Shown here: positions 6,703 through 50,307 of the stretch, piece by piece
How positions within the stretch are numbered: position 1 is the stretch's first letter
Layout: every line of letters begins with the position of its first letter
Assembly (NCBI GenBank): GCA_963678315.1
Contig: OY782781.1
Coordinates: 1,440,001-1,504,000, forward strand
Length of the DNA stretch: 64,000 nt
Direction of reading: 5' to 3'
From: Candidatus Cloacimonadales bacterium
GTDB taxonomy: Bacteria > Cloacimonadota > Cloacimonadia > Cloacimonadales > JAFGVF01
Translations under genes and position numbers: made by a program
Notes under the pieces: model-generated
Database searches by the model: none
Seen by the model: the letters and a program-made list of their open reading frames with translations, nothing else
Told to the model about the DNA's origin: nothing

Positions 6703-8799
6703 ATGAAACACTTAAAGATAGTTAATCTTAAGTCTGGAAGTCCAGAAAATAAGAAATTAGAATTAAAAGCCTATTTAGAAAATACATTTAATATAGAAGA
6801 TGAATTATATAAGACTCTCAAAAGTGATGAAAGCTTTTATCTGAGAGCAGATGCATTACGTCATCCCTTAATATTCTACTTTGGTCATACTTGTGCCTTC
6901 TACATGAACAAGTTGATTCTTGCAGGGCTTATTCAAAATAGAATTAATCCTAAAATAGAATCTATGTGTGCAGTTGGGGTTGATGAAATGTCATGGGATG
7001 ACCTCAACGAGGCTAATTATGATTGGCCTCTAGTTGCTGATGTAAGAATATTTAGAAAGCAAGTAAAAGAATTGCTAGATAATCTAATTGATGAAATGCC
7101 TCTAGAAATGCCGATTAATTGGGATTCTCCTTGGTGGGCATTGGTTATGGGTATGGAACATCAAAGAATTCATATTGAAACTTCTTCTGTGCTAATAAGG
7201 CAGCTTCCAATTAATCAAGTAGTTGAAAGCAAATTCTTCCCTACTTGTGACGAGTTTCCTCCAGCGCCTAAGAATGAACTAGTGAATGTTTTAGGAGGTT
7301 CAGTTGCTTTAGGTAAAACTAAAACAAATGCTTATTATGGTTGGGACAATGAATATGGTGTTCATAAAGCAGATGTGAAGAATATGAAGGTTAGCAGATA
7401 CTTAGTCTCAAATCAAGAGTTCTTAGAATTTGTTGAAGCAAAAGGCTATGAAAATCAATCGTATTGGACTGAAGAAGGTTGGGGTTGGGTAACTTATACT
7501 AAAGCTAAATACCCATTGTTCTGGATTGAACAGAATGGAAAGTGGTATCAGCGTAATATGACTAATATCATAGAGATGCCTTGGGCTTGGCCGGTTGAAG
7601 TTAATTATCTAGAAGCAAAAGCTTTTTGTAATTGGAAAACTCAAGTAACTGGAGAAAACTATAGAATGCCTACTGAAGATGAATGGTATCAATTCTATGA
7701 AATTACCGGTTATCCTGATATTCGCAAAGGCGAAAAGATAATAGCTAATATTAACTTAGAAGATTGTGCTTCTTCAGTGCCTGTAAATAAATATCGTTCT
7801 GATTCATTGTTTGATGTGATTGGCAATGTATGGCAGTGGACAGAAGTTCCTATCTATGCATTTAAAGGTTTTGCAGTTCATCCTTGGTACGATGATTTTA
7901 CAACTCCTACATTTGATGGGCAACATAACTTAATCAAAGGTGGTTCTTGGGCTTCAACAGGTAATTTAGCTATTCCAGAATCACGTTATGCTTTCAGAAG
8001 ACACTTCTACCAGCATGCAGGCTTCAGATATCTTAAAACAGATGAACCTGTGCAAACATTTGATAATATTTATGAAGAAGACCCAGTTGTAGTTGCTGAA
8101 TGTGAAAGAGGCTGGGGAGAAGAGAGATTTGGTATTAGAAACATCTCTCTCAAGCTTTCTGAAATAGCTTTTGATGTCGCTATAAACAAAGACAGAGCTA
8201 TGGTAATAGGTTGTGGGACAGGTAGAACAGCATTTGAACTTTCTAAAGAATTTGACCATGTAGAAGGACTAGATAATTCAGCAAGAGCCTTTAAAATGGC
8301 TGTCGAACTTCAACAGAAAGGACATATTCATTATATTACCTATAACGAAGGAGAAAATAGTTACTATAATGAAAAGTATTTGGCTAACTTTGGTTTAGAC
8401 CAGGTTTCTGATAAAGTTAAATTCTTCCAAGCTGATCCTTCTAATTTACTAGATAAGTTCAAAGGATATGATCTGATTATTTCAGAGATGATGCTAAATA
8501 AAACCTATAAACCAGCTAACTTCTTGGAAGAAATATCTAAACGCTTGAATGATGACGGTATTCTTATTCTCGCTAACTATGCTAGATGGCAAGAGAGTGT
8601 ACCAAATCAAGAGAATTGGCTTGGTGGTTATCGTGGAGAGGATGGTGAAATTGTTGAATCAGCAATGACTATTCAACGCATTCTTGAAAAGGATTTCGAC
8701 CTAATCAAAGAACCTAGACAGCTATCTTATATTATTCCAGTTGATAATTATTTATCTGAACTAAGAAATGCTGATATTACTGTTTGGAAGAAGAAATAG
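6703..8799 (+). CDS. ovoA: 5-histidylcysteine sulfoxide synthase (OvoA) with C-terminal methyltransferase-fold domain
   Basis: LRHPLIFYFGHT, VGVDEMSWDDL, iron motif HQRIHIE (HX3HXE), YGWDNEYG, HPWYDDFTTPTFDG, RYAFRRHFYQHAGFR, GCGTGR. Confidence 0.92.
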   Translation: MKHLKIVNLKSGSPENKKLELKAYLENTFNIEDELYKTLKSDESFYLRADALRHPLIFYFGHTCAFYMNKLILAGLIQNRINPKIESMCAVGVDEMSWDDLNEANYDWPLVADVRIFRKQVKELLDNLIDEMPLEMPINWDSPWWALVMGMEHQRIHIETSSVLIRQLPINQVVESKFFPTCDEFPPAPKNELVNVLGGSVALGKTKTNAYYGWDNEYGVHKADVKNMKVSRYLVSNQEFLEFVEAKGYENQSYWTEEGWGWVTYTKAKYPLFWIEQNGKWYQRNMTNIIEMPWAWPVEVNYLEAKAFCNWKTQVTGENYRMPTEDEWYQFYEITGYPDIRKGEKIIANINLEDCASSVPVNKYRSDSLFDVIGNVWQWTEVPIYAFKGFAVHPWYDDFTTPTFDGQHNLIKGGSWASTGNLAIPESRYAFRRHFYQHAGFRYLKTDEPVQTFDNIYEEDPVVVAECERGWGEERFGIRNISLKLSEIAFDVAINKDRAMVIGCGTGRTAFELSKEFDHVEGLDNSARAFKMAVELQQKGHIHYITYNEGENSYYNEKYLANFGLDQVSDKVKFFQADPSNLLDKFKGYDLIISEMMLNKTYKPANFLEEISKRLNDDGILILANYARWQESVPNQENWLGGYRGEDGEIVESAMTIQRILEKDFDLIKEPRQLSYIIPVDNYLSELRNADITVWKKK

Positions 8800-8920: not shown

Positions 8921-9787
8921 ATGATATTTGAACGGGTCACAATTAGCCATAAGGGCGAAAAGTTCGATGTTGATATTAAGCGATTTGATAATTCAAGATC
9001 TTTAAAGTTATATATGAGTGATGGGAATATAAGAGTAACTACCTTTCCTGGCTGTACTAAAAAAGTGATAAAGAGCTTTGTTAATCAGCACAAAAAGGAG
9101 ATTATTGATCACTATCTTTTTTTTAAGAACAAAAGAATTGAAGAAGATAAGATTGCAAGAAATCTTTCCTTTGATATCTTCTATTTAGGTAGGAAGCTAA
9201 ATCTAAAGGTCGAACGCCTAGAACTTCAAGAAGTAACAGAAGAACCAGAACCATTATCACCAGAAGAACAAATGAGACTTTATATTGATGCATTAGCTAA
9301 TGATAAAGCATTACCAGAAGACCTTACACCTATTAAAGAATCACAGCCGGAAATCGAAAGAAGCTATAAGCTTGTTGATGATACACTGATTGTTAGCATT
9401 GCTCCTGATGATGATCATAATGTGGTAATCTCTCTGATAAAAGAGTTTTATAAAGTTCAAGCTCAAAAGATTATCACTCAAGATACTTATAAGTTTGTTA
9501 AAGAGATTTTTGTTAAATTTATACCTGAAGTTGCAGTCCGTGATATGGTCAAGCAATGGGGAAACTGCAAGTATAAGGCTAATAGACTTTCATTTAATAG
9601 AAGGCTAATTAGACTTCCAAGAAGATTAATCGCCTTTATTATCCTCCATGAACTTGCTCATTTTGTGCATCCTAATCACGGTAATGATTTCCATACTTTA
9701 CTAAATCAATGGGTAGCTGGTAGAGAGAAAGAGTTTGACGAAGAGATGAAAGAATGGAGCTTTGTATTATTAGATAAAATATTATAG
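8921..9787 (+). CDS. YgjP/DUF45-like zinc metallohydrolase
   Basis: QWGNC, IILHELAHFVHPNHGNDF (HExxH). Confidence 0.85.
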   Translation: MIFERVTISHKGEKFDVDIKRFDNSRSLKLYMSDGNIRVTTFPGCTKKVIKSFVNQHKKEIIDHYLFFKNKRIEEDKIARNLSFDIFYLGRKLNLKVERLELQEVTEEPEPLSPEEQMRLYIDALANDKALPEDLTPIKESQPEIERSYKLVDDTLIVSIAPDDDHNVVISLIKEFYKVQAQKIITQDTYKFVKEIFVKFIPEVAVRDMVKQWGNCKYKANRLSFNRRLIRLPRRLIAFIILHELAHFVHPNHGNDFHTLLNQWVAGREKEFDEEMKEWSFVLLDKIL

Positions 9788-38864: not shown

Positions 38865-41800
38865 TTATTTCTCAGCATTTCTAACTAATCTAAAACCAAT
38901 ACTTAGGTTTTTATAACTAGGAGAACCATCATTTCTATTAGCAACTCTACAAAATTTGGCTTTACTAAAGTAACATCCACCTCTAGAAACATGATATTTC
39001 CCTGACTTTGGTCCACTAGGATTATCATTATCTGAAGGATTGTATTTATCAGAATAGAAATCATAGCACCATTCATAAGCATTTCCAGACATGTCATATA
39101 ATCCTAATTCGTTTGGCTTATATTTCATAATGATAGTTGGACAATAGTTAAAACTAGTTTTTCTGGATAACTGATATTTATAAAATGCAACACTATATAT
39201 ATTGTTACTACCTGCATAAATGTATTCTTTACTTTTTTTACCTCCACGGGCAGCATATTCCCATTCTGCTTCAGGCGGAAGTCTATAACCATTCGCTTCT
39301 TTATTGAAAATAACACCATTATCTGTGATTTTGTATACTTGATCATATCCTGCTAGCTGGCTTTTATAATTGCAAAATTTAATAGCATTTAACCAACTAA
39401 CATCACAGACAGCTAACATTGGTGAGCCAGATTTATCCTTAAAGCCATAATAAGCCATGATATTATTGTATTCGTTAACTGTAACTTCATGGCGACAAAT
39501 CATAAATGAATTTACCATAACTCTATGAACAGGCTGCTCATCTGATTCGGAGTCTATATCTTCACTACCCATTAAGAAGAAACCACCCTCTACCTTAACC
39601 ATATTATCATTTCTAATATCATCTTTAAATAGATAAGTGAATTTAGTATTAACACCGGTTGGATATCCATCTAAGGTAAATGTGACATAGAAGTTGGTAT
39701 TTTTTGAGATCTCTATCGGACTAGTATATTTTCTATTTCGAGAGTTATTCCTAAAACTTGATGTGTTATAGTAAATTTCTGCATTATCATATACAGATGA
39801 AAACTCTAATTTTATTGGTTTATCGTATATGCCAGGTTCAATATTTGCCTCAGGTGCTTTATAACTGAATCTGTAAAATTTAGTGCACGTATCATTTGGG
39901 TAGCAATTATCCTTAAAAGCTTTTGCTTTAACTGTTGATGATTTATAGATAGGGAAGGGTTCTGTATATTTTGTAGAATATTTTGTTGGCTCACTTTTGT
40001 TTAATGTATAGTAAATATCAGCATCTTTGTCTTTACTACTTATGCTCACTTTGATTGCTTTATTATGTTGTTCTTTAGATGGTTTTATATTTAAGTTATC
40101 CATTATTTTTATGTCTTTGCTAACATTATTACGAGCTACTCTAAAAGCTAAATTACTATTGTTTATATTACGTAATTGGTATAATGTATTATCTAATAAT
40201 AGATAAGGTTCACTATTATATTTTGAATCACTATCTTCTGATTTGCTATGTATTTCTAGAGAATTAGTAAACAACTCGTGTATTCCAAGAAGACCAGCTT
40301 GGGAAACATTAACAGCTTGCTGAGGATATGAAGTATCTGTAATATATTTTCTTGGGAAATATTCAAAAATAGAGCTTTGGGATTTATTTTCTAAAGCTTC
40401 TAAATATTCATATTCAGCATTGGATGGTAATCTATAACCATTTAAATCACTTTTTTTAATATTCTTAGAAAAATTATCATAAAATAAGACTAAGTTCTCT
40501 TTGGTACTTAGCTGATTAAGATAGTTACATGCTTCATTATAAGAACATAGAGAAGGAAGGAAGTTTTTATAGTAATATTTATCGGGTTTTGAATCATCAA
40601 TGATTAATGATAAATTCTTATAATGTCTCGCAAGATTTGTTTCTTTTACTGGAACTTTATATTTAGATATATAAAAATCATTAATTTTAGCTATGTTTTT
40701 ATCTACTTTCACTAAAACCATCTCATTATCTATTTTGGTCTCATTTATGAAAAATTTGCGTCTTAAGGTTAGAGAATTAGAAGAGTTTTTAGTGAACACT
40801 TTTGCTTTGAGAACACAACTTTTAGAAAGTGTAATTTTATCTTTATAAATTTTAGAATATTTTGTAGGGTTAGAGCCATCAAGAGTATATCATATTTTTG
40901 CTTTGGGGATAAAATGAAGTAGAATGATTTCAATTGTGTCTTTATAATAACCACTTTGTATATTACATTTTGGAGCTGGTATTATTCTTTCATCTTTTTT
41001 TACGACGTTTTTAGCTAATCTAAAGAATATTCGGTCTTTTTTTAACTCTTGATTTATAGAATGTCTATCGACATTGGCTTTTGAATTAAAGGTTATTGTT
41101 TGATCATTATTATTTCTAGCCTTCTTTCTTTTGCATGAATTTTGGATAGTAACTTGTTTTACAACTCTATCTTTTCCATATTTAGAACCTATAGGGTTTA
41201 TTTCCTTTTTTTCATTAAAGTCATCATATCTTTCCAGCAAAATTCCCAGTTACCATTGTAAAGTTCTATCATACCAAGCATATTTTGGAAAGCAGGTCTT
41301 GAAAATGAAAATTCATCAGGGGAAAATGTTTTAAACATACTATTATAATTGTTAGGTGAACCTTGGTATTTGAATTCTAAATTGCTATTAACAGATTTGG
41401 CAGTGTATTCCCATTCTGCTTCTGTAGGCAATCTATATCCATTTGAATTATTATTTATTCTTATTCCATCATCATCTATGATATAGTAAGGTATAAATCC
41501 ATCAATTTCACTTTTTTTATTGCAGAAAAGAGCAATATCTTTCCATGAAATACCAGTCTTGTAGCTATATATTTTTTCGTTAGTTTTATTATCAATTCCC
41601 ATAACATGATTATACTCTTCTATCGTAACTCTTCCTTTGCCTATAAGAAATGCGTCCAGTTCTACTTGGTGAAGTGGCAGACACCACATTCTTTGAGAAC
41701 TTTCATCTCCCATAGTAAATGTACCAGCCGGAACATAAATGAATTCTGAATAATATTTTAATTCTTGTGTAGATTTTACATCTCCACCAGGAAGCTTAAT

Positions 41801-41914
41801 ATGATTCATCATCTCTTCTTTGGCTTGTAAGAAAGCTACATTGCAAATGATTATCAAGATGATTGCATAAACATTCTTACAAAGAAAAACAAATTTACCT
41901 AACTTATAATTCAT
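38865..41914 (-). pseudogene. Disrupted ~1000-aa protein with three FGE-sulfatase domains and Fn3/chitobiase-like spacers
   Basis: ORFs 41198-41914, 40890-41240 and 38865-40799 join into one frame through a 1-nt frameshift near 41235 (WEFCW|ERYDD) and an in-frame TGA at 40890-40892 (KAKI*YTLDGSNPT). Confidence 0.8.
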
Positions 41915-42238: not shown

Positions 42239-44020
42239 CTATTTAGGTCCAATTACTAAACAGAATCTGTAATTATCTCTATAAACATTTCTTTTCATTG
42301 CTTCGTAAAATAAATCAGTTGTGGAGGGACTTCTCATAAACCCATTACTATATCTTGGTGAATAAACCATCTTATAATCATATAGAGAAACATACTTAGG
42401 ATTAATGAGGTAGTCTGTTTCATTGATTTTCTCAATATCTTCGGGGTTAATAAATGTTGAAAAACTATCAAAACTATCGTCAGTTAGAAAGACATTGAAC
42501 ATCTCATTCCTGAAAGGAAGTCGATAGCCAATTTTATCAGGGTGATAAATAATTTTATTGTTAGAAAAAGTATAACATTCTTCTAAACCTGATTCTAAAC
42601 TAAGTTTATTGCATAGTTTCATAATCTCTGAAGGTATAATATCATAACATAAATCATCAGGGAAATCATTAGACCATAAATCAGGAGAAATAAAATATGA
42701 GTGTATTACACTATAGTTGCTATCTACTATGCCATCTTTATTAGTATTAGTATTATCATTCATTGAATTATAATATGGAACATATCTGAAATCTTTTACT
42801 ATTTCTGCATCAATAAATGAATATTTTTTCCGAGTTACAAAATCTTTATAGAAATAATTTTTATATTCTGGAATAATTGTTAGAATAGTATTATCACTAA
42901 TCATTAAGGGAAGGGTATAGATATTGGACTTCTTAGTCGGTATAGAAGCATCTAATGTATAATATAGTCTAACATCTTCTTTATCAGTATTGATAGATAT
43001 TATTTGAGATTCTTTATAAATACCAGTTTCAACTGAACAAGTAATTTTTGGTATATCAGTTCTTACTAATCTAAAACCTACATCTTTATAAGCTTTATCA
43101 ATTTGAATCCCTTCTCTATAGGAAGTTGTACATGCTAAACTATCACTATTAAAAGAACCGCCTTTTATAACTACAAGCTTGTTAGCCTCTATCAATGAAT
43201 CATATTTATTATTGGGGTCAGCATAGTCTTCTATGTAATTAAAACATAACTCTGCTACATTACCAGACATATCATATAGACCAATCTCATTAGCTTGCTT
43301 TTGTTTCGAAAGGATAGAATTACTGCTATTTTGTTGAGCGAAATTATTTCCATAAATAGCAACTTTATCAATATCATTTGATCCTGAGAACTTTAAATTG
43401 TAATCTGGCTTACCACTCATAGCAGCTAGAGTCCATTCACTTTCGTCAGGAAGTCTATAACCATTAGCATACTTGTTAACAAAGATATTTCTTAGTAAGT
43501 TTTCAGTAGTTTGATGATCTTGCCTAAATTGAGTAATATTTTCATATCCGAAATTTAAGACACTTATATCAACTTTAATTAACGCACTATAATATGCTTT
43601 AGAAGAAAAGAAATCATCACCTATTTTTGTTGATTGATTATAAACAGGATCTAATCCTTTTTTAATACTTTCGATATTACATTTTTTTAAACAGTCGATT
43701 AAAGAGAGTCCTCTTACAGGTTCAGTTGTTGTTATTGATGCTTCCTTTTGGGAGTTATTTCTCGAAGAGAGATTTTGTTTTAAAAATTCTGTTTTACTTA
43801 TATAAAAAGGGTCAATTTCAACAGTTTCATTAGCTTGATAATTAGCATTTATTTTAGATATTGGGAGTTTTGCTGAATTAATTAGAACAAAATCATCACA
43901 TTGTTTATATTTCTTCTCTCCTTTAATATATGTTAAGTTATAATGATTGAGAAAATAATAGTCAAGGGCTAATAGAATAAATACTATACTTAGAATTATA
44001 CACAAAGTTACTTTTTTCAT
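42239..44020 (-). CDS. FGE-sulfatase (SUMF1-like) domain protein with Fn3/chitobiase-like domain
   Basis: NGYRLPDESEW, ANEIGLYDMSGNVAE, KGGSF, VGFRLVR, YYTLDASIPT; second degenerate domain; ATGA-coupled start at 44020. Confidence 0.85.
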   Translation of the reverse strand: MKKVTLCIILSIVFILLALDYYFLNHYNLTYIKGEKKYKQCDDFVLINSAKLPISKINANYQANETVEIDPFYISKTEFLKQNLSSRNNSQKEASITTTEPVRGLSLIDCLKKCNIESIKKGLDPVYNQSTKIGDDFFSSKAYYSALIKVDISVLNFGYENITQFRQDHQTTENLLRNIFVNKYANGYRLPDESEWTLAAMSGKPDYNLKFSGSNDIDKVAIYGNNFAQQNSSNSILSKQKQANEIGLYDMSGNVAELCFNYIEDYADPNNKYDSLIEANKLVVIKGGSFNSDSLACTTSYREGIQIDKAYKDVGFRLVRTDIPKITCSVETGIYKESQIISINTDKEDVRLYYTLDASIPTKKSNIYTLPLMISDNTILTIIPEYKNYFYKDFVTRKKYSFIDAEIVKDFRYVPYYNSMNDNTNTNKDGIVDSNYSVIHSYFISPDLWSNDFPDDLCYDIIPSEIMKLCNKLSLESGLEECYTFSNNKIIYHPDKIGYRLPFRNEMFNVFLTDDSFDSFSTFINPEDIEKINETDYLINPKYVSLYDYKMVYSPRYSNGFMRSPSTTDLFYEAMKRNVYRDNYRFCLVIGPK

Positions 44021-44778
44021 TTCTCTTCCCAAGTAAATATTAGATCATGATATGGCAGAAAATCAGTTTTTTTCATAATATATAAATCGTTTGTTTGACC
44101 AGTTTTAAGATTTTTATTAAGATCTAGGTAATTGCTATGAAAAACATAGCCTTTAGGTAAAGTGATGGAAATGATACTCTCTTCAAGTGGTTTATTCCAA
44201 GATTTAGTGCTTTCAAGAATATATTTGCCCTTGTTGTTAACAGCTTTGTGGGTATATTCTATGATTAATTCACAGCTTTTACTTAAAGAAAAGTCTAATT
44301 CAATATATATTTCATTAGGGTTTGAATCATTGTTAGTTAAGAGTTTATTCTTGCCCATATGGCTACTTTTAAGTAGTTTAGAATCTTCTTCTTTGGCTAA
44401 ACTTGAATCAATAAGCACAGATTTGTTGTAGTAGGTTCGCTTATTAATTGAAATAAAATCTATCTCAATATCACCATAGTTTTGAGCTATAGGGTAGATG
44501 ATTGTCTCTGGATTGTAGTTTATGTTATTTGGATCAAAACCTCTTGTTAGAGAAACATATCTATCTATTGTAAATATATATTTCCCAGCAACTTTTACTT
44601 CATTATCTTGAGTTATTCTTATATCAACTTGCTCACTCACAAAAGATAAATTTTGTTTTATGTCAGGGGCAATAGGGTTAGTTAAAATAATTGAAACGCT
44701 TGTAATTAGGAATACACATAGCAAAACTCTTTTAATAAAACTGCTAGTTAAATAGAACCAAACTCTTTCTTTTAACAT
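44017..44778 (-). CDS. Secreted hypothetical protein (DUF4424-like)
   Basis: Signal-like N-terminus, SEQVDIRI, YILESTKSWNKPLEESII. Confidence 0.6.
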   Translation of the reverse strand: MLKERVWFYLTSSFIKRVLLCVFLITSVSIILTNPIAPDIKQNLSFVSEQVDIRITQDNEVKVAGKYIFTIDRYVSLTRGFDPNNINYNPETIIYPIAQNYGDIEIDFISINKRTYYNKSVLIDSSLAKEEDSKLLKSSHMGKNKLLTNNDSNPNEIYIELDFSLSKSCELIIEYTHKAVNNKGKYILESTKSWNKPLEESIISITLPKGYVFHSNYLDLNKNLKTGQTNDLYIMKKTDFLPYHDLIFTWEEK

Positions 44779-47383: not shown

Positions 47384-47492
47384 TTTTAACCTCTTTACCA
47401 ATATTAATTCTTTAAAGAGTCATGGCAATAAAAAAGATATTAATATTTCTTGAAGGAGGATTATTAGTTTACTTTCCTCACTCTTCACTTCT

Positions 47493-47616
47493 CCCACGAT
47501 TGAAATCATGGGCTCTTAGAAGATATGTCCTTTCAGGACAAAGCAAGAGAGACGTTTTGCGAAACGTCTCTGTAAGAATATTCAGTGTTGTAGGGGCAGA
47601 TGACATAGCCCCTACA
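47493..47616. repeat. Cluster of REP-like hairpins downstream of the FGE gene
   Basis: cccacgat-tgaa-atcatggg; tgtcctttcaggaca; agagacgtttt-gc-gaaacgtctct; tgtaggggc-n10-gcccctaca (47589-47616). Confidence 0.75.
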
Positions 47617-47644: not shown

Positions 47645-48727
47645 TTATGGCTTACGGACAATGCGGAAGCCTATATCGTAGAAGTTGAAAGCAGGATCGT
47701 GGTAGCCACGATTAGCAACACGGCAGCCGGAAGAACCATAGAACCAGCAACCACCACCTAAGATACGGTAATACCCACTAGAAGGGCCTGTCGGATTAGT
47801 TTGAGCTGATGAAGAGTATGAACCATTCCAGTCATTACACCATTCCCATACATTACCTGACATATCATATAAGCCTAGTTGATTAGGTAGCTTTGTTCCA
47901 ACCACTTTAGTTCCATATTGTGGTGTTCCATAAGACCCATTGTTAGTAGAATACCAGGCATAGTTGGTTAATTCAGATTCTATATTTGTCCCTGAATATT
48001 GATTATATCCACTTGCTGGCTCTTGATTACCACCTTTAGCTGCATACATCCACTCCATCTCTGTTGGAAGTCTATAACCATTAGCAGTAAAATCACAAGA
48101 CCAATCCGATGTATCATAACATGGTGTTAAGCCTTCTTGAAGACTTCTAGTATTGCAATACTCAACTGCATTATACCATGTAACATAGTAGACAGGATAA
48201 TCAATTCCGACCCCATAATCATTAGCAGGATTAGAACCGATAACAGCCTCATATTCAGCTTGAGTAACTTCATTCTTAGACATATAGAAATCACTTAAGG
48301 TAACATCAGCTGTACCATTGTTGAAGGTGCCACCTGTTATATATACAAGTGATTCAACTTCTTCTGCTCCGAGAGGATTAGTAGGAACAAGAGGATTATC
48401 ACGAGCAATAAGTTTAATTTTGTATTGATTTCCACTAGTAATTCCATCTTCTGAAGGGGTCCAGTTGATAACCTTATCTATACCAGGAGATACTTCATTT
48501 CCTACATGGCCTGATAATGCTGTTGGATAGATATCGTAGTTTGCACCATTATCTTGAGAAACTAGAACTATCACTTGACACTGCCCATCAGCTTGCAAAT
48601 CGTAGACAATTTCAACATTCCCAGATTGTGGAGTAACTTGAATATTTGAGATAACAGGTGAAGCAGCATATACAAATGATATTGCAAACACTAAAGATAT
48701 TAATAATAGATATTTTTTCATACTCAC
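47645..48727 (-). CDS. FGE-sulfatase (C-type lectin fold) protein; candidate DGR target
   Basis: EVTQAEY, YPVYYVTWYNA, GYRLPTEMEW, PNQLGLYDMSGNVWEWC, GGCW...CRVANR...IGFRIVR. Confidence 0.9.
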   Translation of the reverse strand: MSMKKYLLLISLVFAISFVYAASPVISNIQVTPQSGNVEIVYDLQADGQCQVIVLVSQDNGANYDIYPTALSGHVGNEVSPGIDKVINWTPSEDGITSGNQYKIKLIARDNPLVPTNPLGAEEVESLVYITGGTFNNGTADVTLSDFYMSKNEVTQAEYEAVIGSNPANDYGVGIDYPVYYVTWYNAVEYCNTRSLQEGLTPCYDTSDWSCDFTANGYRLPTEMEWMYAAKGGNQEPASGYNQYSGTNIESELTNYAWYSTNNGSYGTPQYGTKVVGTKLPNQLGLYDMSGNVWEWCNDWNGSYSSSAQTNPTGPSSGYYRILGGGCWFYGSSGCRVANRGYHDPAFNFYDIGFRIVRKP

Positions 48728-48730
48728 GCC

Positions 48731-49456
48731 CTATTTTACCAAGATAGCTTTTTTGACTTGATTTTTTAATGAACTATTCATTCTAATTAAATATATTCCA
48801 GAAGAACAATCTTTACCATTCATATTTTTACCATTCCAAACTACATTATGAAATCCTTCTGCATAAGTTTCATCAGTTAGTATATTAATTAACTGTCCTT
48901 TAATATTGTAAATTTCCAATTTTACATTACTTGATTCAGCTAAGTAAAACTTAATAGATGTACTTGGATTAAAGGGATTAGGATATATACTTTCTAATGA
49001 AGTAAATTGAGGAATAGTAAAATCTTCTACGTCATGATTTTCTTGTACTGTAACTTGTACAGGACCGAAGAATTCATTGCAACTATAGCCAACGCTTTTG
49101 ATCCAGTAATAGTAAGTCTTTTCAGATTCTATTTCAGAATCATGATAAGAATAGTTATTGGTTAAATTAGTGTTATTTGCAAATATGATATCAGAGTTAA
49201 TATTTTCAGCTGCATCTAAGTTCTCTGATTCAGATCTGTAAATGTGATAACCAACTAAGTTTGATTCGCTTTGAGTAGTCCAATTAATAGCAATTGCATC
49301 ATTGCTAACATTTGGAATTGCCATAAATGATGAAAGTGATACTGGTAAAGTTTCATCACTGATTGCAAAAACAGAGGATTCAACAAAACCTGTTAATGAA
49401 AATAGCATACCAGTAGTTAGTAACATAAGTAAAGTAAATATGAAGTTCTTCTTCAT
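48731..49456 (-). CDS. Small secreted protein with FlgD-Ig/T9SS-type C-terminal domain
   Basis: Signal peptide, TLPVSLSSF..WTTQSE..GYHIYR, YPNPFNPST..IYNIKGQ..WNGKN..SSGIY. Confidence 0.85.
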   Translation of the reverse strand: MKKNFIFTLLMLLTTGMLFSLTGFVESSVFAISDETLPVSLSSFMAIPNVSNDAIAINWTTQSESNLVGYHIYRSESENLDAAENINSDIIFANNTNLTNNYSYHDSEIESEKTYYYWIKSVGYSCNEFFGPVQVTVQENHDVEDFTIPQFTSLESIYPNPFNPSTSIKFYLAESSNVKLEIYNIKGQLINILTDETYAEGFHNVVWNGKNMNGKDCSSGIYLIRMNSSLKNQVKKAILVK

Positions 49457-49726: not shown

Positions 49727-50307
49727 GTAAGCATGAACTATGTTCAACCTATCGGCGGATGCTTACACTCCATCTTGTCCAGTCCTAAATAATTTGACTG
49801 TTTTTCGTGTTATTCGTGCTTTTCGTGGTAAACTTTTCTGTTTGCAGATAAAGCTTAGCCTTTATGTCGCCCTTTCAGGGCTTTTTTTATTTTTTAACTA
49901 TTACATGGAGGGCAAGCCTCCATGCTTAGTATATGCCACCCCTTCGGGGTTTTTATGGATAGCATCTCCTCACTCCTTGTCCAGTCCTAAATAATTTGAC
50001 TGTTTTTCGTGTTATTCGTGCTTTTCGTGGTAAACTTCTCTGTTTGCAGATAAAGCTTAGCCTTTATGTCGCCCTTTTAGGGCTTTTTTTATTTTTTAAC
50101 TATTACATGGAGGGCAAGCCTCCATGCTTAGTATATGCCACCCCTTCGGGACCAAAATGTCCTTTCAGGACAAAGCAAGGTATTTGCGTAAGCATGAACT
50201 ATGTTCAACCTATCGGTGGATGCTTACACTCCATCTCTCTCCTTACTTCTAACTGCTAACTTAAGTGTCTCATTGAAAAATTGGCTTTTTTTCAAAGAGG
50301 CAAGTAA
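49727..50307. repeat. REP mosaic containing a 175-bp tandem duplication
   Basis: 49774-49948 repeated at 49976-50150; flanked by gtaagcatgaactatgttcaacctatcggYggatgcttacactccatct at 49727-49775 and 50188-50236. Confidence 0.9.

Follow-up and report, generated by a model that had tools for sequence, protein, structure and literature searches.

The closest described counterparts of the gene considered here are the TvpA family proteins of Treponema denticola, which are secreted, have the formylglycine generating enzyme (FGE)-sulfatase/C-type-lectin fold and carry a variable region at the extreme C-terminus. T. denticola has a diversity generating retroelement (DGR) of the HRDC-containing type with several remote targets; remote targets and the HRDC-type 'Architecture C' have been described by Wu et al. 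2018 (PMC5758913). Isolates of T. denticola without the reverse transcriptase (RT) or the template repeat keep FGE-type targets, whose variable regions differ from the templates of sister isolates mostly at adenines; the authors interpreted these regions as what remains after a DGR was lost (Nimkulrat et al. 2016, PMC4891356). In the current analysis we have examined a gene of a Candidatus Cloacimonadales bacterium (assembly GCA_963678315.1, contig OY782781.1), situated at 47645 to 48727 on the minus strand of a stretch of 64,000 nucleotides (positions 1,440,001 to 1,504,000 of the contig), which is referred to as the window. The gene encodes a secreted protein of FGE/C-type-lectin fold and its 3' tail is, on the basis of sequence comparison, a variable region of the DGR type which, as in the T. 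denticola isolates mentioned above, occurs in a genome without RT and template.

The host belongs to another phylum, Cloacimonadota, in which DGR RTs are present (PMC11661182). Most of the T. denticola targets are predicted lipoproteins, whereas the protein encoded here is predicted, from a reading of its sequence, to have a plain signal peptide with no lipobox Cys. The DGR of the Bordetella phage BPP-1 is comparable in its adenine-specific mutagenic retrohoming into the C-terminal C-type-lectin-fold region of Mtd and in its use of AAY codons, which cannot mutate to stops, but it belongs to a phage, acts on a target in cis and includes the accessory protein Avd. The HRDC-type DGRs of two other Cloacimonadales genomes, G009 and G006 (G, L and P numbers are our handles for genomes, loci and protein clusters), are comparable in their Asn-rich templates, in their GGCTTCCGC 3' end, which is identical in the variable region studied here, and in having remote targets more than 1 Mb away; unlike them, the host genome is without any part of a cassette.

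The RT is the starting point of large DGR surveys, one of which states that remote targets are missed (PMC8144416); orphan targets are therefore uncounted. Besides T. denticola, no other treatment of 'orphan', 'relic' or 'remnant' DGR targets has been found in the excerpts of the literature consulted.

The gene and the composition of its tail

The gene comprises the following features.

47645..48727, minus strand: target gene, a 360-aa open frame with a likely ATG start at 48721 that gives 358 aa
47654..47770, minus strand: variable region (YRILGGGCWFYGSSGCRVANRGYHDPAFNFYDIGFRIVR), GC-rich and A-poor, with NNY codons where related templates have AAY
47645..47653, minus strand: final two codons AAG CCA and the TAA stop, after the conserved sequence (GGCTTCCGC...GTCCGT) with which the variable region ends

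The N-terminal domain of the encoded protein (about 100 aa) matches no Pfam family and is followed by an FGE-sulfatase/C-type-lectin-fold domain that extends up to the C-terminus. The N-terminus (MKKYLLLISLVFAISFVYA) appears to be a Sec signal-peptide-like segment. The sole Pfam match is to PF03781 (FGE-sulfatase; residues 124-356, E=2.7e-40), and a ligand-binding domain of C-type-lectin/FGE fold is located at the 3' end of the gene, as in DGR targets. PF03781 is also the domain of SUMF1/FGE, but the protein matches TvpA far more strongly than it does the FGEs: its best solved relative is the T. denticola variable protein 1 (2y3c; E=3.2e-37), in an alignment that reaches the final residue, and solved formylglycine generating enzymes match at E about 1e-13 only. 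In true FGEs the C-terminal subdomain has a copper site and a catalytic cysteine pair, the latter probably in the part that is hypervariable in this protein. An enzymatic role is unlikely.

The 38 codons from TAC (47770) to GTC (47657) include 35 that end in a pyrimidine (Y) and 18 that end in C, with two ending in A and one in G, at a GC content of 0.50 and an A fraction of 0.14, and all five Arg codons of this stretch are CGT or CGC. These counts, made afresh, are the same as in the original prediction, which had also described every Arg codon here as CGT or CGC. The 319 codons upstream in the same gene have a GC content of 0.37, an A fraction of 0.32 and only 32 codons ending in C, the three upstream Arg codons are CGT, AGA and AGA, and the host genome as a whole has 32.8% GC. 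The paralog at 38865, the end of which had been described as unlike the tail studied here, indeed has, in its last 42 codons, a GC content of 0.31 and three C-ending codons, and uses AGA.

A blind scan of the genome covered 763,998 segments of 38 codons, drawn from the 1,706 stop-to-stop frames that are 200 codons or longer. Cut-offs of at least 18 C-ending and at least 35 Y-ending codons are reached by the tail of the target gene alone. When the cut-offs are loosened to at least 13 and at least 32, four segments pass, of which the top two are the target tail and a paralog tail at genome position 371953, both located 3-4 codons from the stop. The codon skew is real and beyond chance. The scan for NNY and C-ending codons thus picked precisely the two clearest variable-region-like tails in 3 Mb, and a region apparently written by a DGR has been recognised by composition alone in a genome with neither template nor RT.

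The related templates of the genomes G009, G006 and G076 have 15-19 C-ending and 31-34 Y-ending codons among 38, as compared to 18 and 35 in the target tail. The A fraction is 0.31-0.36 in the templates and 0.14-0.21 in live variable regions, and that of the target stretch (0.14) is within the latter range. The codon skew is therefore explained by a template composition copied into the variable region.

Templates and variable regions of relatives

The tail was compared without gaps over 114 nt with the templates of G009, G006 and G076, and identities at 80 non-adenine (non-A) and 34 adenine (A) sites were assessed by the Fisher test. The tail is identical to the G006 template at 63 of the 80 non-A sites and at nine of the 34 A sites (p=3e-7); across the three foreign templates the values are 60-63 and 9-11, respectively (p = 4e-5 to 3e-7). 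The live remote variable regions of G009 give practically the same picture when set against templates foreign to them (61-65/80 non-A, 11-13/34 A; p = 9e-5 to 9e-7). In three AT-rich tails of paralogs that share the protein motif, among them that of the 38865 gene, the identities number 29-42 at the non-A and 10-15 at the A sites, and the asymmetry is not significant. The asymmetry of the target tail equals that of live G009 regions and is missing from the controls, which marks its divergence as adenine-specific.

An alignment of 15 orthologs shows four invariant residues (G351, F352, R353 and R356) and four nearly invariant ones (G323, G324, W326 and C333) in the region of residues 318-356, all eight of them at scaffold positions. 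The region upstream of residue 318 is well conserved in the 15 orthologs.

Composition and template comparison agree on a DGR variable region at the 3' end of an FGE/C-type-lectin gene, which is what the original prediction had proposed. The template pattern that it guessed (beginning GGSWNNN and ending N.NNN.GFR) matches the template repeats of the same family nearly exactly, and the NNY codons that it regarded as derivable from AAY are located at the AAY positions of templates. An Arg-to-Gly change (RGG to GGG) had been regarded as adenine-derived if the template codon was AGA; as it is a C-to-G difference with respect to all three related templates, this change is not adenine-derived. The prediction had named two outcomes as contrary to it, the lack of a template or RT here and in relatives and mainly synonymous variation among orthologs. 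What has been found is a DGR RT with a related template in 3 of 11 genomes of the same family, and orthologous tails that vary at non-synonymous positions.

A search with the stretch in 40 relatives gave weak matches in four same-family genomes, which in G009 and G006 adjoin a short RT gene. The same-family HRDC-type template repeats encode RVNRGGSWNN..NCRVANRNNNNP.N.NNNIGFR and have the same codon skew as the target tail. The DGR locus of G009 is made up of an HRDC gene, a gene for a 340-aa RT, a template that encodes GSNRVNRGGSWNNSATNCRVANRNNNNPTNSNNNIGFRLARS and an IS200-like transposase gene. The RT has GLPIGNLTSQ and YMDD, which we take to be motifs typical of DGR RTs, and the template immediately follows the RT gene, with an overlap of the last codons of this gene. 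Three variable regions have been identified in G009, one adjacent and two remote; the latter are situated at 2.26 and 2.42 Mb, at distances of about 1.45 and 1.6 Mb. The remote regions agree with their own template at 77/80 and 73/80 non-A sites and at 13/34 and 16/34 A sites, respectively. These features suggest a working-looking HRDC-type DGR with remote targets.

The adjacent variable region of G009 (L065 ~9300-9400; G009 804264-804396) has one extra base as compared to the template (CCCGACGTAATAG vs CCCGAC-TAATAG), which leads to an in-frame TAA at the end of a 611-aa open reading frame (ORF). The cis target of this cassette looks truncated while the two remote targets look intact.

Of 120 other genomes of the order that were searched with the G009 RT, 31 have a DGR RT, as do 3 of 11 genomes of the family, and none was detected in the host genome. 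The G009 RT is 59% identical to the RT of another family, as against 55% and 38% within its own family. Among 80 loci with relatives of the target, a template-like copy within the locus was found only in L069, L086 and L130 under the threshold used, and L065 of G009 is narrowly below this threshold with 70 matches and with 9 non-A and 21 A mismatches. Genes for this family of proteins thus do not, as a rule, adjoin a DGR. Some homolog clusters at 90% identity (P0022, P0054, P0077 and P0090) have 41-136 member sequences but are recorded on only one or two contigs, a pattern expected of DGR-diversified alleles in other populations.

Three more paralogs in the host genome have variable-region-like tails, which are graded weaker.

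genome 371365-372081 (371k tail): GC 0.50, 16/42 C-ending codons, 74% non-A identity to the G006 template
genome 370041-370760 (370k tail): GC 0.44, 13/42 C-ending codons, 70% non-A identity to the G006 template
genome 1785485-1786195 (1785k tail): GC 0.43, 8/42 C-ending codons, 65% non-A identity to the G006 template

Between the target and 371k tails 61/74 non-A and 8/27 A sites are identical, as compared to 66/74 and 3/27 between two live G009 regions. The four host tails differ from each other at non-A sites, and one present-day template therefore cannot serve all four. The target gene shares its RKP-stop ending with the 1785k paralog.

Variable regions that fit a foreign template have also been identified in G001 and G003, complete single-contig genomes of the genus g2 in which no DGR RT was found. 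These regions agree with the G009 template at 70-74/80 non-A and 14-17/34 A sites; one further copy in G001 carries an indel and has no ungapped fit to the template. One of the fitting regions of G001 is in the syntenic ortholog of the target gene (66% identical), which makes this ortholog a genuine target of a DGR in the sister genus. From these comparisons orphan variable regions appear to recur in the family. The gene studied here is such an orphan: it has a variable region, its genome has neither RT nor template, and both are present in close relatives (the RT in 3 of 11 genomes of the family). Cloacimonadales are uncultured organisms of anaerobic digesters and sediment, and their patchy DGRs together with orphan regions in complete genomes form a natural series which could address the rate of cassette gain and loss, the speed at which frozen regions decay and the selection on frozen surface-lectin alleles.

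The closest ortholog (L063 7992-10050, in G001) is fused to a second FGE domain, and between this second domain and a well-preserved variable region behind it there is a stop codon.

Absence of a cassette from the host genome and its probable explanation

The host genome is a single metagenome-assembled contig of 2,988,751 bases with no N and with a completeness of 97.9%. No DGR RT, HRDC accessory gene or template repeat was found in this contig by the PF00078 profile, tblastn and the scans. The variable region is therefore an orphan, as had been predicted, although the accompanying proposal of a remote target served by a DGR elsewhere in the same genome is not supported. The PF00078 profile has six matches at four places, in ORFs which we take, from their motifs and not from a family scan, to be group II intron-type RTs. 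The search of the contig with the RT and the HRDC protein of G009 by tblastn gave nothing better than E=2.4. An ungapped adenine-mismatch scan for a template copy found none, and BLAST of the variable region and of the three related templates retrieved four gene tails only and no template. The host genome thus contains neither a cognate template nor a DGR-type RT with its accessory gene.

The RT frames are at genome positions 2505986, 1079753, 983457-984099 and 2875199-2875841 (L009-L014); two are intact (339-343 aa) and two are split into two frames, and the split form is seen at least six times in G009. The only match to PF05635 (Avd-like), at genome 995265, has been rejected as a DGR part, with no RT beside it. 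The protein concerned (995265-995576; L015 1465-1884) is a 139-aa four-helix-bundle protein (105.9 bits) and its gene is situated between a methyltransferase-like ORF and another large ORF, flanks that are read as restriction-modification genes.

A compatible template was sought outside the host genome with patterns in which every base is either the base of the variable region or A. The exact 63-nt and 36-nt patterns have 0 matches in metagenome_contigs and 0 in viral_contigs. With up to 3 mismatches allowed, the 63-nt pattern matches only itself among 203 genomes of the order and is absent from the 202 others. Logan contigs of three sequencing runs include none at 99% or more on the stretch, only pieces like the paralogs or relatives, and have no bearing on hypervariability.

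The composition of the tail, its adenine-specific divergence from the templates of relatives and the lack of an RT, an HRDC gene and a template in this genome are direct observations, and we consider the most probable explanation to be that the variable region is an orphan, a frozen allele left behind after loss of the DGR cassette. The last ~38 codons would have been written by a DGR, in which the RT makes a cDNA of the template repeat, misreading its adenines, and this cDNA takes the place of the 3' end of the target. The ligand-binding surface would be randomised in this process, with the scaffold residues (GG.W, C.VA.R, P and GFR) kept, and the GC-rich, A-poor NNY pattern would be the composition of the template set in a genome of 33% GC. 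The cassette responsible would be of the HRDC type, as are the DGRs of the same family with their several remote targets. It would since have gone from the host genome, with the variable region staying on as a frozen allele. We infer that the lineage once possessed the cassette, that it was lost and that the allele is presumably no longer changing. The lack of any cassette part, template or remnant in the host genome, the failure to find a compatible template in 202 other genomes of the order or in the two contig collections and the heterogeneity of the host tails count for loss, as do the variable regions kept by the DGR-less G001 and G003 and the T. denticola precedent. The target would be a DGR leftover of the kind known from T. 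denticola, extended to a new phylum, and the general picture would be unchanged.

Several observations weigh against this explanation. The tail differs from every related template at 17-20 of the 80 non-A sites, including the 5' part (RIL-G vs RVNR-G); in T. denticola the template of sister isolates fits the orphans closely, whereas the nearest templates here come from other genera. No cognate template was found in anything searched, and the adenine-specific divergence has been seen against templates of relatives. The G009 cassette is flanked by an rRNA operon and by a block that maps to host genome 1855367-1860135, and the 1.8-kb gap upstream of the block in the host consists of repeats, with no DGR remnant and no clean scar or empty site. 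The stretch looks as fresh as a live region, with an A fraction of 0.14 and as many C-ending codons as a template, in a genome of 33% GC, which argues for recent writing. Recent writing fits an active, unseen DGR as well as a recent loss, and any plasmids or phages of the same cell would be missing from a single contig assembled from a metagenome.

A live variable region, rewritten in trans by a DGR that is missing from the assembly, is accordingly the next explanation to be considered, and we regard it as possible though clearly less likely than loss. Such a DGR could reside on a plasmid or phage or in a strain-variable island, or its cassette could be restricted to part of the population, and a single-contig metagenome genome would exclude plasmids and phages. 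The stretch has not eroded toward the AT-rich codon usage of the genome. DGR RTs are distributed patchily (31/120 genomes of the order, 3/11 of the family), their relationships are discordant with taxonomy (59% to another family vs 55% and 38% within the same one) and an IS200-like transposase gene adjoins the G009 cassette. DGR components have also been reported to act in trans (PMC5758913). Yet the host genome contains no RT, HRDC gene or template, no compatible template was recovered from 202 genomes of the order (up to 3 mismatches) or, as an exact match, from metagenome_contigs and viral_contigs, and a single current template would be insufficient for four host tails that differ at non-A sites.

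We tentatively put forward a further reading, of somewhat lower probability still, in which such genes are 'standby' targets. FGE-lectin genes scattered over the chromosome would keep competent 3' ends, and a small HRDC-type cassette would move horizontally between lineages, rewrite compatible remote targets in trans and be lost again. The IS200-like transposase gene beside the G009 cassette is cited here for horizontal movement. If this were true, diversification would be episodic, orphans would be re-usable landing pads and not dead relics, and the fresh composition of the target variable region would mark a recent visit of a cassette.

It is improbable, in our view, that the lineage never had a DGR and that the gene or its 3' end was imported already diversified from a DGR-bearing relative by recombination or horizontal transfer. 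Import would agree with a sharp compositional break limited to the last ~40 codons, with the existence of four paralogs that have such tails in two endings (RKP-stop and RSL[YD]-stop) and with the finding of no cassette remnant or scar in the host genome. A break precisely at the start of the variable region is, however, the expected product of retrohoming, and the synteny of the target gene and its neighbour, a type IX secretion system (T9SS) sorting-domain protein gene, with the G001 ortholog points to vertical descent. No donor was found either, the closest protein among 5.8 billion clusters being 66-67% identical; the target itself is a singleton cluster. A non-DGR origin, as an ordinary FGE paralog with a tail made GC-rich by codon selection, biased gene conversion or positive selection on binding residues, could appeal to a scaffold motif (GG.W...C.V..R....P.......GFR) common to FGE members that no DGR targets and to a template-like copy in only 3/80 loci of relatives under the threshold used, but is highly improbable and already contradicted by the ordinary AT-rich tails of three paralogs with the same motif, by high identity to templates at non-A sites including synonymous third positions with chance-level identity at A sites, by a skew equal to that of non-coding templates and by the uniqueness of the skewed segment in the genome.

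Downstream hairpin, neighbouring genes and repeats

Two further features flank the coding region of the target.

47589..47616, strand not assigned: GC-rich inverted repeat with a 9-bp stem and a 10-nt loop, 28 nt past the stop
48731..49456, minus strand: gene next upstream, for a protein of 241 aa that has a C-terminal sorting domain of the T9SS (matches to PF18962 and PF13860)

The hairpin at 47589-47616 has the stem, the loop and the distance from the stop that had been predicted, and it is unlike the classic short-loop DGR hairpin. Its interpretation as a repetitive extragenic palindromic (REP) element is rejected, as it occurs once in the genome. There is no T-run after the stem. In BPP-1 a GC-rich short-loop hairpin is found directly behind the initiation of mutagenic homing (IMH) sequence (PMC5758913), whereas the gene studied here has a 3' end (GGCTTCCGC) shared with the templates, which may be IMH-like, and a GC-rich stem that is 28 nt past the stop and has a 10-nt loop. 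In G009, two variable regions are followed at 60-90 nt by GC-rich stems, the loops of which have 11-12 nt. The hairpin of the target gene may be a terminator or a target-recognition structure.

Homologs of the T9SS neighbour are directly upstream of homologous FGE genes in L063 and L080, and synteny is kept.

Four further genes with FGE-sulfatase domains are encoded in the window (7273-8031, 38865-40799, 41198-41914 and 42239-44032), the last three of which stand side by side a short way downstream of the target gene, and none of the four has a GC-rich, A-poor tail. These paralogs may never have been targeted, or may once have been targets and have since decayed fully.

A tandem repeat of ~230-260 bp is present at 49740-50259 of the window and also in L002 (2570-3167), downstream of the 371k paralog. 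Its first copy (49740-50000) has 170 BLAST matches in the genome at 96-98% identity, and a short open frame (MTVFRVIRAFRGKL...) recurs in each copy; it looks like a very abundant element of the miniature inverted-repeat transposable element (MITE) kind. Between the hairpin of the target gene and the next gene, at 47480-47575, is an element of ~90 nt with its own hairpin (AGAGACGTTTTGCGAAACGTCTCT). This element has 42 BLAST matches in the genome at 85-90% identity, and Logan contigs accumulate at this place to a depth of ~800.

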